DNA of 64,000 nucleotides, from positions 62,001 through 126,000 of the forward strand of contig JAPEUI010000016.1 of NCBI GenBank assembly GCA_026025075.1. The letters are read 5' to 3'. Source of the DNA: Vezdaea acicularis. Its lineage: Eukaryota. Below the pieces are notes generated by a model, which worked only from the letters and a program-made list of their open reading frames with translations, was not told the origin of the DNA and made no database searches. Of this stretch, positions 23,163 to 31,232 are shown in pieces. Numbering within the stretch: position 1 is the first letter of the stretch; the number at the start of each line of letters is the position of its first letter. Both the position numbers and the translations under genes were made by a program.

Positions 23163-26100
23163 ATGCTCTCGAGGGGTAACAGTACCTCTGCCTCTCGACT
23201 TCGGCGTGCTAAGTCTTCATCCTCTGTCAAAAACCTTCGGAGGTCACCTACAAGATCAGACTCAATAGATCCCGAGATCGCCCGCCTGCACGCCTTGGCT
23301 GCGGCTTCATGTGCTTTCGAGCGTGCGGAAGGAGGAAGAAGCTCTGTTTTCGAAACCAATCCTGTTAGGAACGACAGTACTAAAAGTCAGACTGCTGCGC
23401 GATCTTATGCGCTCTCTCGGCGATCGAGCGTTCGATTTGCAGAGGAGGCCGGATTAAGAAGACGCCAATCCATTGAAGAGAGGTGCCGAGCAGGCATGAG
23501 AAGCGTAGAAGACCCCTATATGGATGCGCCTACTAAGCATCAGCGGTCCCACCAAGGATCTCCAATAAGTCGGCTAGAGAGCTACATTACGGCATCCGCA
23601 GACCTAGATCGGCTGAATATACCTGAAGATGATGTATCATCCTCACCGTCATCTTATCGACGGATCCGCAAAGCAAGATCCATGTTTTATGATACGAAGC
23701 CGTCGTCTCTCGCTTACCCAGAAACTACATCGGAAGGTTAGTGTCGAAAGATTCCTCATAGTAAGCATCTCTAATGTGATGTAGGATATCAAGGCGTAAA
23801 GTCCTTAAGAACACCAAAATCATTGTCCTTTCTGAGGGGAGGTACTGACCATTTGACGCCCTCGATCCGAAGAAACAAGGACGAAGCGATTCGAATTGCA
23901 AGGCACAAGTATTTGGAGCATCTAGAGGAACAAAGACTTAAGGAACGATCCTTTTTCGCGCTCGCCTCGACTGCAAAGCGCCGGGAAACGAAAAATTTCC
24001 GCAAGACCGTTCGAACAAATAGCCAGACCCGCTATGGCAACGCAATTGCATCTCCCAATCAGGGCCTGGAAATTCAGAAGCATGATCTTGCGTTCAAAGC
24101 ACGGAAGATCTCATTGTCGATCAGGAATCGCGTCAAAAAGGTATTTGGGGCTGCCCACAAAGAGCAAGAGAACATTCCCATTCAGCAACTTGACGCAAGC
24201 CGCGAACACTTCCGAGATTACAGTCCCGAACCCCAAGAGGCTCACCAGAACTTTAGTGGGCTTACCCCACTAGGTGATGCGGAACTACTCTGCGTCAATT
24301 CTCGTGTCCCTTCTCTGCGGTCACCCCCATCCTATGCACAAGTGAGCTCAACAGCTGCTAGCCTTCGTAGCAAACTGAGCGACGATGATGCAAGTAACGG
24401 GAAATCGCGAGTTACAAGCTGGACGGACTCAACCTCGAATAACACTTTCGCTGTTCGCCAAGCCATCGAGAAGAAACGCCTTTCTATCATCCAAGAACAA
24501 AATTTACACCAACACTCTTCTCCATCTGCAGACCATCAGGGTTACGATGCATTTCGATATTCAAAAGGAACTCAAATGGGTGCGCAAAGTCCCGTGCACG
24601 TCGATAGCAGGACTGTATATGAGGCACTGAGGCAGCGGATAGATGGGGCTAGTCAGCAGGAGAGTTCCGAAACTCTCCAACATTCTTTCAACGATCAGAA
24701 TGGTGAACAAGGGTATGGCATGAACCATATGACGCATCCCCAAAGCAGGAATCTCAAGCAAAGCACGCCCATAACAGTCCGGCGAGTCATCAGTGACTCC
24801 CCTAATACAGTAACAAGAGCACATCCCGTGAGATTAACCAAGTCAATCATATTCCACCCGAAACCTCCCCTTTATGAAGACGACGTCTTCTTTCCCGAAA
24901 AAGATAACGACTTTCATACTTTTATCGAGCAGCAAGATCGTTCTTTGAGTGAGAGCACCAATGGAAGCGTTCTGAGGCCGACTTTGGACCGTGAATCTCA
25001 ATTTGTTTCCGCACCAACACGTCGGGCTTCTCACAGAACTCTGACTCCTCAGCACGTCTCGGATTATCTTGAAGAACAAGATACATCTCAGAAGCCAGGA
25101 ACTCTTCCGCGTGAGGCCCAGTCCTCATTCTTCCCTTACCCTGGCGGCGTAAAGGCTCCTACTCCGAGCCCGTATAGGCGAGCAATGAACTTGAGCAACA
25201 CCAAAGCCATCGAACTTGACGATACCGAGTCTCTGGAGAGCATTCGAATGGATGAAAGCGCAACACTTAGCCCTGGCACTCAACGGAGAATCACGACAGG
25301 CTCAAGCAGTGTGTACTCTCGAACTACGAGCGGGAATACTCCAAATCATGGGCATGACGGGGTTCCTCTGGACGATCTAGAGGGCACTCAGGGCACTGCA
25401 ACAATCATAGTTGATAACTTAGTCCAACGTAATGATAGGACTCAGGAGCTAAAGAGCCGGGGTCACTCTTCACGAGCTTCGAGTGGTGAATGGAGAAAGT
25501 GGATGTCAGCTCAAGTCGCCCATCTAGAAAGACAAGCGGAGAGCTTCCAGCTCATCAGCCGTCTCAAGCCTTTCCGACACAATCGAGAAAACGCTCAGAT
25601 CAGCGGCGATGACACGGAGATCGGCGATCTTCAGACAAACAAGCAACCACTTGCAGCCATGCACGTTAACGTTCCCCCAAGATCTTTCACAGAGAGCAAG
25701 GCTGCCCCTCAAACAAACCCTCAAGGAGACAAGCGCTCTGCTTCGGTACAGCCCCATCTGATGCAGCACCAGCTTTCATATGATGCCTTAGCACTTACGA
25801 AAGACAAGCCTAACACTTCTAATGCTACTTATCAATTCATGCCTATAATCAGACAGATAAAGTCTCATGGCTCATTCAGGTCTAGTTCAGGTGCCAGCTC
25901 AAACCAGCAGCTTAGAGGACAGGGCACTGCAAAAAGGAGCTCCGTCAATGGCTCAGCATCCTCAAAACCTGTGTCACGAACGCGATCGAACGCAACACTT
26001 CGCCTACACTTCAAGCCAAAGTATGAAGGAGCTGCAAAGGATAGCAATGACTATTCCCCACCTTACGACTTTGAGGATGGATTGGGTCCAATCGTCGATG

Positions 26101-26306
26101 GTCGCCTAGGGTCACTCAATTCTCAAGGAAACGTTGAGAACCAGGACCCGAGCTTGCGAAATGATCATGCCCCTGAGGGTTCTGGGCTGATGGGCCCTTA
26201 TATGGATGCCAGTCTGCGAGATAGACGCATGGTCGACCTATTCCTTAGTGGCCGCCGCAGCCAAATGAGGATTAGTGAAGAGAGCGGAACGACTGCTTTT
26301 GTATGA
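23163..26306 (+). CDS. Hypothetical Ser/Arg-rich, largely disordered protein (~1030 aa, 2 exons)
   Basis: ORFs 23163-23741 and 23823-26306 are joined by intron 23737-23784 in frame. Short conserved-looking islands: SSYRRIRKARSM, SRVTSWTDS, EWRKWMS, HNRENAQI and RRMVDLFLSGRR. Confidence 0.8.
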
Positions 26307-27005
26307 AATTGTTACCTTACAGCACATCTCACTAGATCTTGTATAGAAAGCTGCATGCAAGCAGCGCTAAGGAAGCAATAAGGGCCGCATGTAGCTGTGG
26401 AACTGCTTTTGCGATTACCTACCATTCATATCACCGCCAATCGCTAGTTCTCAACCTTCATAAAGGGTTCAATAAATCAGATAAATTATCGCTGAAGCAA
26501 TGAGCTCTCGGAGAATGATAGAGGGCTATTATATCATAGATTATGTTACCGGAAACGCTGTGGTCTTCATATGCTGGTCTCATGAACGATCACTTCGCGA
26601 TAAGCCCGCTAAGCTTGGGCTCGCGTCGGCAGCTCCCGTATGTAGTCATGGCACCAATATCCCGAAGATGACGCCAATTGAAAACCTTGGAAACAAGGTC
26701 GCCGGCGGGATTTCCTGCGCCCAAGTTGTTGGAGCGAGCAGACGTCTGCTCGCTCGACGTTGACTCACTGATGTAGTCGACTGAGGTTCGCAGGTGTTGA
26801 GCCTGCGATGCTCAGAACCCTGGCTGCTGCCTGACTCACTCACCAGCCCCCGCTTTTCAGCCTATCGACGCCTGGTTGACCATCGTGGTATTTACCCCGC
26901 TGTCCGCCACTACTTGCATGTCAGAGTCCCCCAATCTGATATCATTGATATCTTCTTGCAACCTCACGGTTGTCTTTCCAAAACCTACAATCTTCTGGTC
27001 AGCTC

Positions 27006-29472
27006 ATGGCTGCCTCCAAGCCCTTCTCGGAGCCTGAGCTCCTCCATCTACCAGGCACGACACTTGAAGGTGGAGGCCAACTTATTCGTATCGCTCTAGG
27101 TCTGTCTGCACTAACCCGCATTCCTCTCCGCATTTCCGCCATTCGAGGCAACCGACCTCGTGGCGGGGGGTTGAAAGCGCAACATCTCGCAAGCCTCAAT
27201 TGGCTTGCTCAGGCCTGTGGCGCGAAAGTCAAGGGCGATTTCCTAGCGAGTCGGGACGTTGAATTCTTTCCCGGCTGTATGAAAGGAGTATTGGGCAAAG
27301 AGAAAATCATTAATGGCAAACCGGTCGTTTGTATCGAAGTCAGCGCCGGCGGGATGGGGAGTGTGAGCTTGGTGCTGCAAGCCATTCTCCCATATATCCT
27401 CTTCGGAGCACCTCTTTCCAACACTAAGGCTTCCTCTGGCTCAGCTGCAAGTTCTCCGAAAGCGAAAAGACGCTCTGTGGAACGATCGGAGCAGATCGTG
27501 CTAATCATTACTGGTGGTACGAATGTCTCATTCTCGCCAAGCTATGAGTATGTCTCCCAGGTGCTTCTACCAACGCTTGAGCGCATCGGAATACCTCGCA
27601 TAACTTCCCATCTGCACCAACGCGGGTGGTCTATTGGGCCGCAGTCCCGTCATGGACAGTATCAGGAAGCCGAAGTGGGTAAGGTTTCCTTTACGATCCA
27701 GCCTTTGCCCTCAGGCACGCCCCTCGCCAATTTCAACCTTAACGGGGGCACTGGGAAGCTGCGGAAGCTCGAAGTATCAATGATAGCCGAGATACGACTT
27801 CGGTGCACGATCAAGGAGAAGTTGCGCGACGAGCTGAGGACGCGGTATCCGGCTCTCAAGTGGGAGGAAGATGTAAACTTCAAGATTGATGAAGATAGTG
27901 GCCACGGAAAGAGGATATATCTGCTTCTAGTTGCCATAACTGATGAAGGGCACAGGCTTGGATTCGATGCTCTAGGCTTTAAGAAGAGGCAATGGGTCCC
28001 TGAATTCGTTCAGGGTGTCATCTGGAAGATGACTAACGCTCTGAGGAATGGAGCTGCAGTCGATGAGCACATGAGCGATCAGCTGGTTGTGTATCAAGCG
28101 TTGGCCAATGGACGGAGCTTTGTTGATAGCAAGGTTGACGACGGTAAGGCTGACGAGGGAATCAAACCGACTCTACACACTCAAACAGCTAGATGGGTGG
28201 CAGAAAAGGTTCTTGGTGTTGAATTCAACCATCTAGGGGTATGCGAAGGTAGTGGGCTCCAGCGAGGGAAGCCTTTTCACAAAGAAGCCCAACCGCGAAT
28301 AGCAGCTACCAGCGAGAATCATGACGAGCTGCAACCACACGAAGAACCATGCATCAGAACCGAGCAGGCCGGGTTTATATCAGCTATAGGGGGGAGTCTT
28401 TACGAGTTGCAACGGCACGAGGAAGCATATACTGGAACTGCCCAAGCCGAGGAAGTGGAGAAGACTGAATATGTATGCATGCTAGATCAAAAGGATAGAA
28501 TGCGGCTTGAGGCGAAGTGGGAAAATATGGTAGCAGTCGCACCAAATGATTATGAGCACGATCCTGAATATTTCGTGTCACTTTTCGAAGAGCTGATGGC
28601 GCCGGGCTATATCACTTACGCTAGAGGTGAATGGCTTGTTGAGCGGATCAAGCAACATATCATTGGCAACCAGATGCCCCTTTCCAAAGGGACCTTGATG
28701 GAATCCGTTGAGGCCTATTGCGCCATTAAAGCGAGGTATACGGTGCTGAAACTCTACGATAGAGTTTGGGAAGGAGCGAATTATCATAGGAAGATCGTGC
28801 TTAACAACACCTACAGCACTTTCGGGGACGAGAAGCCAGGTCATGCAGGTAAGGATGTATACTATGAAAAGTAGAAGCGCCAGCTGACCGCAGGTGATAG
28901 AAGATCCTTGGTTCCCTGTCCGAAATACTGAGAGTATTACGGTCTCCGCCAGCTGGGCAGATGGGCACACCCACTGGATCGTCTTCGAACACGAGCAGAA
29001 CGGCGTCAAGCTGGCATACACCATCCGTTGCGACGTCGAAAAGATCGACCTCTCCGACCTCACCGAAGCGGTCAAAACGGAATGGTGCGCCTACCCATCG
29101 GCATACTGCGCGGAAAACGAATACCGCGGGAATCGTTTTGAGTACGAAAACGAGTGTAACAACGTAGGCTGGGCCCTCGCTCGCCTGAACCCTTGCCTAC
29201 GGGGGAAACGAGCACTTATACTGAAGGCCGTGGTTGCGTGGCAGAAGGCACAGGAGAATCTGCTACTTGAGAATGTGACTGCGGCTGGTGGTGACGCTCA
29301 GCAATCGTTGCTTCCCCAGCAGCAACGTGAGCTGGTGCCATCTGGCCAGGAGAACCAGGATCAGGCGAGTAGCAAGGCTGCCGAGGCCGACCCGGCTGAT
29401 GATGAGGTATTGGTGGACAATTCGGATGATGAATGGGAGGTCGTGGACGGTCTCAAGGATCTAAAGGTCTAA
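27006..29472 (+). CDS. RNA 3'-terminal phosphate cyclase (RtcA-type) with a long C-terminal extension and an appended conserved fungal domain (2 exons, ~804 aa)
   Basis: GTTLEGGGQLIR, IRGNRPRGGGLKAQHL, GSVSLVLQAILP, ITGGTNVSFSP, VDEHMSDQL and catalytic-His motif TLHTQT. Proposed intron 28849-28900 joins ORF 28894-29472 in frame. The cyclase call is firm; the fusion is less certain. Confidence 0.8.
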
Positions 29473-29830
29473 TTTGGATTTGGTCCAATTCGGGTTTCTG
29501 CTGGCTATGCGTAAGGTAATCAGCTTATTGGTGGCATAAATTTGGGTATCTCGTGCTTATCAGCTGGATTGGTGATAGGAGGAAAGCTGTCTGGGTGGGT
29601 ATATGGGGAACGCGATCTCAATCTACATGGCATTCTTGCGTAGGCGTTGTCGTCATCTGGAGCTTCCAGTATGGTTTATGATTACTCCTGCGCTGGTATA
29701 GGCTTCTTTACGACGTGGGATCCTCAGAATATAACGTTTCTTGAATTCAAAATTGTTTCGCCGGTCAATTTGCATTCAAGATTGAAGTGATTTAGGCGTT
29801 TTAAGTGCTTATAGCGCTCCTCGAGAACGC

Positions 29831-30030: not shown

Positions 30031-30209
30031 TATAGACTTTTTGTGTTACGATTATCGGACGTTGCGGAAGTTGCTGCGGGACTCCTGCGGCACGCTTGCG
30101 AGCGCTTGAAGCGCCGATAGTTATCGCTTCATGAATTTTGGCTCAACCTTTTGACTTGAGTTGAGAATCCACTACATCTTCTGCCCCACAACAGGATTTG
30201 TGCTGCAAA

Positions 30210-31232
30210 ATGGCATCCGCGAAACGCAAGAACGACTTCCTTGATACTCACGACAGCGACTCTTCCGACGGCGAAGCCGGCTACGACTCTGAAGAGCTTG
30301 CAGAAAGCAGAGCGGCACAGGTATCCCGTACCTCAAAACGACGAAGAGTGTCCCGCTCCGCCTCCCCCGAATCCAATGCCGAAGACAGCCATGCTGAGGA
30401 AGAAGAAAAGGACGTGAATAGTGATACCTCAAAGCCAAATGATGATGGAAGGCTCTCCCCAACAGCGCCACCTAGCAAGAACCCCAGCTCTATCAAACCC
30501 AAGCCCCTCACCACCAAATCGCTCACCCGCACCAACACTGCCGCCAAAAGGACAGGCGTCATCTACCTCTCCCGCATTCCCCCCTTCATGAAACCCTCCA
30601 CCCTCCGCTCCCTCCTTAGCCACCACGGCGCGCTCGGCCGAATCTTCCTCGCGCCCGAAAGCCCCGCCTCGCACCACTCACGCGTGCGATCTGGAGGCAA
30701 CAAGAAGAAAGCATACACCGACGGCTGGGTAGAGTTTCTTTCAAAAGCCGATGCCAAGCGCGTGGCCGAGACGCTGAATGCGCAGATCATTGGCGGCCGT
30801 AAAGGGGGGTGGTATCATGATGATCTCTGGAATATCAAGTATTTAAAGGGCTTCAAGTGGGCGAATCTAACGGAGCAGATCGCGAATGAGAATGCGGAGA
30901 GGGAGGCTAGAATGAGGCTTGAGATTGGACGGCAGAGGAGGGAAGAGAAGGTGTTTGTGAGGGGCGTTCAGAGGGCGAAGGTTGAGCGGCGGAGGGAGGA
31001 GAAGAGGAAGAGGCGGGTGGAGAGGGGGAAGGTGGTTGTGGATGTTGGTGGAAACAAGGGAGATGGTGGGGCGAATGAAGTGCAGGAGTTGCCGGTGTTG
31101 GAGTCAAAGAGGAGTGGTGGGGGGAAGAAAAACATGGGGTTCCGGCAGACTAAGGTTCTGAGGAAGGGCCAGGATACATCAGGGGAAAGGGGGCGGGAGT
31201 CGGTCAGGGACGTTCTGGCGAAGATTTTTTGA
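30210..31232 (+). CDS. ESF2: Pre-rRNA-processing protein Esf2 (ABT1 family, RRM)
   Basis: TGVIYLSRIPPFMKP, GRIFLAPE, GGNKKKAYTDGWVEF and IIGGRKGGWYHDDLWNIKYLKGFKWANLTEQI. Confidence 0.95.
   Translation: MASAKRKNDFLDTHDSDSSDGEAGYDSEELAESRAAQVSRTSKRRRVSRSASPESNAEDSHAEEEEKDVNSDTSKPNDDGRLSPTAPPSKNPSSIKPKPLTTKSLTRTNTAAKRTGVIYLSRIPPFMKPSTLRSLLSHHGALGRIFLAPESPASHHSRVRSGGNKKKAYTDGWVEFLSKADAKRVAETLNAQIIGGRKGGWYHDDLWNIKYLKGFKWANLTEQIANENAEREARMRLEIGRQRREEKVFVRGVQRAKVERRREEKRKRRVERGKVVVDVGGNKGDGGANEVQELPVLESKRSGGGKKNMGFRQTKVLRKGQDTSGERGRESVRDVLAKIF

Follow-up and report, generated by a model that had tools for sequence, protein, structure and literature searches.

The stretch of DNA analysed here, hereafter the window, comprises 64,000 nucleotides of contig JAPEUI010000016.1 (assembly GCA_026025075.1; positions 62,001 to 126,000 of the forward strand) from Vezdaea acicularis (Ascomycota, Vezdaeales), a lichen-forming fungus. 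We focused on window positions 27006–29472, where an open reading frame (ORF) for an RNA 3′-phosphate cyclase is closely followed by a second one for a domain of the DUF8032 family; the two probably belong to a single two-exon gene (Table 1). ORF1, on the plus strand, starts with the ATG at 27006–27008 and remains open for 622 codons until the TAG at 28872–28874. ORF2 (28888–29472; 194 codons) lies in the +1 frame relative to ORF1, ends with the TAA at 29470–29472 and contains no methionine codon. An earlier reading of this DNA from its letters alone (hereafter referred to as the sequence-only reading) had proposed that splicing joins the two ORFs. Our recount reproduced all of its intron and ORF coordinates within 27006–29472. 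It had also stated correctly that ORF2 lacks an ATG; the 20 nt that it placed between the unspliced stop and ORF2 had to be corrected to 14 nt.

The segment between the two ORFs has the features of a well-formed phase-1 intron with a GTAAGG donor, a GCTGAC branch site and a TAG acceptor, as the sequence-only reading had described. As position 28848 opens a codon, the join 28848^28901 preserves the frame and gives a spliced coding sequence of 804 codons. The upstream stop codon that closes the ORF2 frame (28885–28887) falls within the branch site, 13 nt before the acceptor. Other plausible introns of the window are 46–99 nt long and have a CTGAC or CTAAC branch sequence 10–22 nt before their ends, some of them with a TAG acceptor. 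When we scanned the whole window for introns that would connect two open frames, each of 80 codons or more, this locus was among about eight with a short read-through. By rough arithmetic, the chance of finding even a loose in-frame set of signals (GTRNGN/CTRAY/AG) no more than 60 nt from an ORF junction of this kind is ~0.06, and it is lower for the strong motifs present here.

The base composition of exon 2 is also of the coding type, with G+C fractions of 0.658, 0.389 and 0.647 at codon positions 1, 2 and 3, respectively. At the third position, the G+C content of exon 2 (0.65–0.72) exceeds that of exon 1 (0.52–0.54), with values of 0.47 and 0.67 in the neighbouring genes. The contrast between the exons is consistent with separate origins of the two parts.

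Table 1. Coordinates of the predicted cyclase-DUF8032 gene in the window
Feature	Position	Strand	Remark or basis
Predicted exon 1	27006..28848	+	614 codons + 1 base; joined to 28901-29472 = 804 codons, identical to KAI9862198.1
RtcA-type RNA 3′-phosphate cyclase domain, aa 20-408	27063..28229	+	Pfam PF01137, E 2.4e-46
Codon of His391, presumed AMP-accepting nucleophile	28176..28178	+	Invariant column; aligned to E. coli His309
Lineage-specific orphan extension, aa 413-614	28242..28847	+	Matched only by P0031 of the relative strain
Candidate intron, 52 nt, phase 1	28849..28900	+	Splice signals, frame
Candidate intron signals	GTAAGG 28849-54; in-frame TAG 28872-74; GCTGAC 28883-88; CAG 28891-93; TAG 28898-900	+	Sequence
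Predicted exon 2, 190 codons + TAA 29470-72, no Met in frame	28901..29472	+	P0032 of the relative strain open to same stop
Divergent DUF8032 (PF26087) domain, ORF2 aa 27-125, protein aa 638-734	28966..29262	+	Homology, own hidden Markov model, AlphaFold2 model
Acidic C-terminal tail with Trp-x-x-Val, last 25 residues	29395..29469	+	Identical in window and P0032

The N-terminal part of ORF1 carries a complete cyclase domain. Pfam RTC (PF01137) scored 158.1 bits (cut-off, 27), and residues 20–408 covered profile positions 2–220 of 221. RTC_insert (PF05189) reached 15.8 bits, under its cut-off of 23; the region is still alignable with homologues. We aligned the window cyclase with nine fungal homologues (alignment A1, 10 sequences). 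All A1-invariant residues are kept in the window protein: those of the EGGGQ, R, IRxxR and QH motifs, the DE..DQ motif and His391. The N-terminal invariant residues are E21, G22–G24, Q25, R28, R47, R50, Q59 and H60, and the same motifs are aligned in the solved structures 4o89 and 3kgd; in RtcA, they serve phosphate and metal binding in catalysis. His391 is invariant in all 10 sequences and, in the profile, coincides with His309 of E. coli RtcA (1qmh_A). A covalent His309-AMP adduct is an intermediate of the reaction (PMC3854526).

The A1 profile matched solved RtcA structures with E values of 6e-47 (4o89) and 1e-36 (E. coli), and Rcl1 (7mq8_SH) only weakly (E 4e-10, positions 150–338). The window protein shares the superfamily fold with Rcl1, a component of the small-subunit processome, and differs from it by the RtcA-type N-terminal motifs and the histidine. 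As judged from these alignments, the cyclase half is of the RtcA rather than the Rcl1 subfamily, as the sequence-only reading had it. With the RtcA proteins of E. coli (1qmh/3kgd), Pyrococcus (4o89) and fungi (P0181–P0187), the window protein has in common the full RTC domain, the N-terminal motifs and the histidine. Its identity to the nine homologues is 42–48%; any two of the homologues share 46–56%, three closer pairs (61–93%) excepted. Thus, the RtcA domain appears intact, somewhat fast-evolving and, from its residues, active.

The cyclase homologues stop 20–40 residues past the CEG motif (around residue 415), whereas the window frame runs on for ~200 codons, remaining open through residue 614 up to the stop after codon 622; both the end of the fold near residue 420 and the continuation beyond it had been noted before. 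This extension (residues 413–614) is an orphan. A word-based search with it returned a single match, the P0031 protein of a relative strain described below. A scan of JGI metagenomes with the extension produced 43 pattern matches, none of which was confirmed, and a search of the Atlas gave no relative (top score 0.86, with low recognition); the other 298 proteins of our stored set (see below) contained no match. We nevertheless regard the extension as apparent coding sequence, because its G+C fractions by codon position (0.585/0.38/0.52) resemble those of the cyclase part, unlike those of the flanks, because P0031 is identical to the window protein up to residue 612 (612/612) and because three of the four listed nucleotide changes are synonymous. 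A single-sequence AlphaFold2 prediction had a mean pLDDT (predicted local distance difference test) of 39; its four helices (pLDDT 50–65) lie within extension residues 81–159. With low confidence, this model suggests a disordered stretch of ~80 residues followed by helices.

ORF2 encodes a domain of a family that the sequence-only reading had described as occurring in separate, glutamine- and proline-rich (Q/P-rich) fungal proteins. Its longer database matches bore this out: all 30 were labelled PF26087 (DUF8032), with E values of 3.7e-35 to 3.2e-26 and identities of at most 62%. HMMER against 1.84 billion representative sequences yielded 422 proteins at E ≤ 1e-3, and the matches listed all fell on ORF2 residues ~27–125. 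Our own hidden Markov model of DUF8032 recognized the window domain with an E value of 6.6e-44. Membership was assigned from the precomputed PF26087 labels and from this model, the Pfam-A copy used being silent even for P0002, a protein that bears the PF26087 label. In the Atlas the two nearest clusters were likewise DUF8032 (scores 0.81 and 0.78), which we treat as leads only. The window copy retains all 12 invariant columns of the family: C67, P70, R83, Y86, E87, C90, N91, L97, N101, R108, L110 and V115.

A structure prediction, which the sequence-only reading had suggested as a check, gave a confident core: with the family alignment as input, AlphaFold2 modelled residues 31–120 as a β-hairpin followed by helices with pLDDT values of 92–98. 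Foldseek found no match to this model in the PDB at E ≤ 0.001, and a VIA-align comparison with 48,161 chains found none with Z ≥ 5, the best being ZapA (Z 4.2, root-mean-square deviation 5.9, 68 residues aligned). A search of the PDB with the ORF2 sequence returned nothing below E 1.4. The domain is thus not assignable to a fold, although this lack of matches is no evidence of a new one.

The stored set used for the family comparisons comprised 300 proteins, the RTC list being the best 120 of 1881 matches and the DUF8032 list the best 150 of 422. In canonical DUF8032 proteins, which stand alone, a Q/P-rich N-terminal region precedes the domain, and a basic tail and a conserved motif at the end follow it. 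Of the 180 stored proteins with DUF8032, 54 have two copies and one has three. Some members also bear C2H2, PHD, Zn2Cys6 or homeobox-KN domains (for example P0109, P0111 and P0123 among P0033–P0180), and such company fits a nuclear, transcription-related setting of the family. The window copy shares with canonical members such as P0001 (353 aa) and P0002 (from Westerdykella ornata) the same domain of ~100 residues, the 12 invariant residues and the predicted hairpin-plus-helices core. The canonical proteins differ in having their own start, the Q/P-rich region and the basic tail, and in being callable as single ORFs; the window copy has no methionine, an acidic tail and an altered consensus.

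RTC and DUF8032 occurred together in one protein only among the 300 stored (121 with RTC, 180 with DUF8032). The other 119 RTC proteins listed and stored are all stand-alone enzymes of 373–500 residues, in contrast to the 622 to 804 residues of the window protein with its orphan extension and DUF8032 exon. The one protein is GenBank KAI9862198.1 (P0300), annotated ‘MAG: hypothetical protein M1824_001579 [Vezdaea acicularis]’; it has 804 residues, is identical to our spliced translation at all 804 and falls in the same 90%-identity cluster as P0031. The fused gene model is therefore already public, and we found no description of it in the literature. The fused frame of the ‘new chimeric RNA-repair enzyme’ proposed by the sequence-only reading was borne out, and so was the rarity of the combination among the stored proteins; the word ‘new’ was not, since the model had been deposited. 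Both domains belong to known families, and it is their combination that is rare among the proteins examined. In titles and the beginnings of abstracts, we found no paper on an RtcA-type cyclase fused in this way in fungi. For Vezdaea acicularis, the literature searched listed only a lichen inventory, and a literature search that left supplements aside found no paper on DUF8032.

For comparison with relatives, we used the contigs of four DNA-type runs (X1–X4) over positions 26500–29800. The X4 contig proved to be colinear with the window over 26500–29790, with ~92% identity and 261 differences. Its gaps amount to 8 letters in three events, all of which lie in the flanks outside 27006–29472. At the flank rate, the probability of seeing no insertion or deletion (indel) would be 1e-4 for 27006–29472 as a whole, 0.0012 for exon 1 and 0.12 for exon 2 alone. 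Since X4 is colinear without indels in the gene, the order of cyclase, extension, intron and DUF8032 is common to a second lineage. The candidate intron is free of indels in the contigs of all four runs.

Runs X1–X3 come from a strain, here termed the mosaic strain, whose proteins P0031 (622 aa) and P0032 (134 aa) are encoded on one 6958-bp contig and correspond to ORF1 and ORF2. This strain differs from the window at 4 of 1365 nt before position ~28200 and at 59 of 1575 nt after it. The X1 and X2 contigs break at 28191–28226, at the end of the cyclase domain, with 99.7% identity on the left and 96.3% on the right. The right half shares variants with X4, and the pattern suggests a recombinant or mosaic haplotype. 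We rejected repeat-induced point mutation as a source of the divergence on the right, since C>T and G>A together make up just 5 of the 16 changes listed.

We then asked what the changes in P0032 reveal about constraint on exon 2. P0032 keeps ORF2 open to the same stop. Of the 29 conserved positions that the domain still retains, its eight changes there touch a single one (P = 0.049), and 6 of the 11 listed exon-2 substitutions fall on codon position 3 (P = 0.12). Fisher's method, applied to the avoidance of conserved sites, the third-position bias, the lack of an exon-2 indel and the lack of a stop codon, gave a combined P of 0.034. This combination excludes a test on the C-terminal tail, in which the last 25 residues are unchanged between window and P0032 whereas the preceding 44 include 9 differences (P = 0.003; the limit between the two segments was set post hoc). 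Taken together, the relatives show weak signs of some constraint on exon 2. The same tail has a Trp-x-x-Val sequence that is reminiscent of Atg8-interaction motifs (LIR/AIM).

These results lead us to consider it likely that one two-exon gene encodes a predicted 804-residue chimera of an RtcA-type cyclase and a DUF8032 domain, formed by a lineage-specific fusion. The strongest argument for this interpretation lies in the history of ORF2. Because it is at most 62% identical to its matches and yet shows no break of frame and a whole invariant core, it must have been translated for most of its history. Having no methionine codon and an in-frame stop 13 nt ahead of the acceptor, it would depend for its translation on being spliced behind the cyclase exon, and a strong in-frame intron is present at just the required place. 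We therefore infer that positions 28849–28900 are spliced out. The intron would not have been inherited from canonical DUF8032 genes, since these (for example that of P0001) can be called as single ORFs.

Several observations weigh against a functional fusion, and a number of them would be expected if there were no splicing, the gene ending at the TAG of 28872–28874 with a 622-residue cyclase, and ORF2 being a decaying, untranslated relic of DUF8032 in the 3′ untranslated region or flank. All eight of the listed runs that cover the locus are DNA-type contigs, without splice joints, and are thus uninformative about expression. Prokaryote-style gene calls on the contig of the mosaic strain yield just P0031 and P0032; callers of the Prodigal type are blind to introns, however, so that these two calls are uninformative on splicing. 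KAI9862198.1, for which a eukaryotic gene predictor arrived at the same intron, may have been built on the same splice signals and so counts as weak independent support, and the architecture is known from one lineage only, so that wider conservation cannot back it. The domain itself has diverged markedly. Its median identity to 39 members is 47.5%, compared with a family median of 68.3%, making it the most divergent of the 40 compared, and 20 of the 60 columns with a family consensus of at least 80% are changed, several of them basic or polar, including R37Q, R39G, N66W (in a 100% column), R71S, Q112L, D116V, R119Q and N120K. Alignment with the family also showed the loss of the basic tail, as the sequence-only reading had noticed: the RLRSRRVRR-type sequence is replaced by a neutral, acidic one. 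This pattern of divergence fits either a new role after fusion or slow decay.

The variation among relatives offers further points of this kind. In P0032, 17 of 133 exon-2 residues differ from the window, compared with 2 of 622 residues of ORF1 in P0031. As the right half of the mosaic strain carries X4 variants, this contrast mostly reflects the haplotype boundary and is not a measure of selection; its explanation by relaxed selection was rejected, the 5′ flank and the synonymous sites on the left being near-identical as well. Of the 11 listed exon-2 substitutions, 7 are non-synonymous (random expectation, 78%). The exon-2 core, with 20 differences in 265 nt (record 15 of X3), is not below the 3′ flank (6 in 179 nt); record 16 of X3 (14 in 371 nt) spans both the exon-2 tail and the 3′ flank, in which the exon-2 share is inseparable. 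Each single test of constraint is weak, the tail test is post hoc, and the absence of a stop codon from P0032 after ~24 substitutions is uninformative, being matched in about a third of neutral trials (P ~0.3). The constraint on exon 2, if any, would thus appear to be relaxed. A relic is still hard to reconcile with other properties of ORF2. An unbroken frame with all 12 invariant residues at an identity of 62% or less implies coding constraint over most of its history, and a strong in-frame intron at its border would be a coincidence. The codon-position composition is of the coding type, the conserved core sites are avoided by substitutions, the last 25 residues are invariant and the relative of 92% identity has no indels here. 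On balance, we regard an untranslated relic as unlikely.

Two other readings accept that ORF2 is expressed but differ in how. The DUF8032 module could be optional, with full fusions made through the TAG at 28900, or through the AAG at 28903 with one residue fewer, alongside cyclase-only products made through the nearer CAG at 28893 (626 residues) or by intron retention (622 residues). The nearer acceptor (28891–28893), upstream of the TAG, is a point against the fusion; our computation agrees with the sequence-only reading that its use would give a cyclase-only product, with a stop 12 codons on. The retained intron would also supply an in-frame stop. The TAGAAG at 28898–28903 is a tandem acceptor with both AGs in frame, from which a form lacking one glutamate is possible. 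The CAG, however, lies just 6 nt from the branch adenosine at 28887. Acceptors so near the branch adenosine are usually unused, given the general geometry of the spliceosome. No RNA run is among the eight listed for the locus. Such a mixture of isoforms is compatible with the fusion, and we consider it rather improbable. The other reading invokes an internal promoter and a methionine (for example at about residues 487–503) from which a separate protein of ~300 residues, a helical region plus DUF8032, would be made, the fused ORF being a by-product. That size is near the 350–380 residues of canonical DUF8032 proteins, which place the domain 150–200 residues after their start, and the first ~80 residues of the extension look disordered in the low-confidence model, like a translated former spacer. 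Any cyclase transcript would nonetheless read through the extension, as ORF1 has no stop before 28872; the extension has an identical amino-acid sequence in the relative despite synonymous nucleotide changes, and is unlike the N-terminus of any DUF8032 protein. Two separate proteins are, in our view, very improbable.

The surroundings of the gene contain no second copy of RTC or DUF8032 within the 64-kb window. The next ORF on the plus strand (30165–31229; 355 residues) has an N-terminus of basic and acidic character. It could encode a nucleolar RRM protein, given a weak match to RRM_1 that stays just below the cut-off of 20.7 bits (19.7 bits; E 7.8e-4). The upstream ORF at 23775–26303 (843 codons) is serine-rich and has no match to any Pfam family.

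If the fused 804-residue protein is made as we propose, the 52-nt intron at 28849–28900 would be removed, and translation would proceed from the cyclase and its extension into the DUF8032 domain and the acidic tail. In the cyclase, ATP would adenylylate His391, the AMP would then move to the RNA 3′-phosphate and attack by the 2′-OH would produce a 2′,3′-cyclic phosphate. Fungal tRNA ligase Trl1 heals 2′,3′-cyclic phosphate ends, according to two reports (PMC5029449, PMC6379707), and the cyclic ends made by the cyclase could feed this pathway. The C-terminal half might serve as a tether or interaction module that places the cyclase at a partner also contacted by canonical DUF8032 proteins, which are probably nuclear and are often joined to DNA-binding domains. 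For the window copy, protein–protein docking seems more likely than direct binding of nucleic acids, because most of the conserved basic residues and the basic tail are lost while the structural core is kept. As to its origin, an intronless DUF8032 gene probably gave rise to a fragment, consisting of the domain alone, that inserted behind the cyclase gene and was recruited as its 3′ exon. That the chimera acts as an RNA-repair enzyme is something we infer only.

No cellular role has been assigned to the RtcA enzymes of fungi, and no function to DUF8032. By the logic of a Rosetta-stone link, DUF8032 proteins might handle RNA 3′-phosphate or 2′,3′-cyclic ends, for example in splicing of the tRNA/HAC1 type or in nuclear RNA repair, with the docking core wired here to RtcA and the tail adding a second signal for docking or turnover; we offer this as a doubtful extrapolation. 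Should the chimera not be expressed, what remains is an unremarkable cyclase gene with an unusual tail, followed by the decaying remnant of a domain. If it is expressed, it would show in clean form how part of another gene, a single domain, can become a new 3′ exon, and it would give a first testable hint that RtcA and DUF8032 share one pathway.

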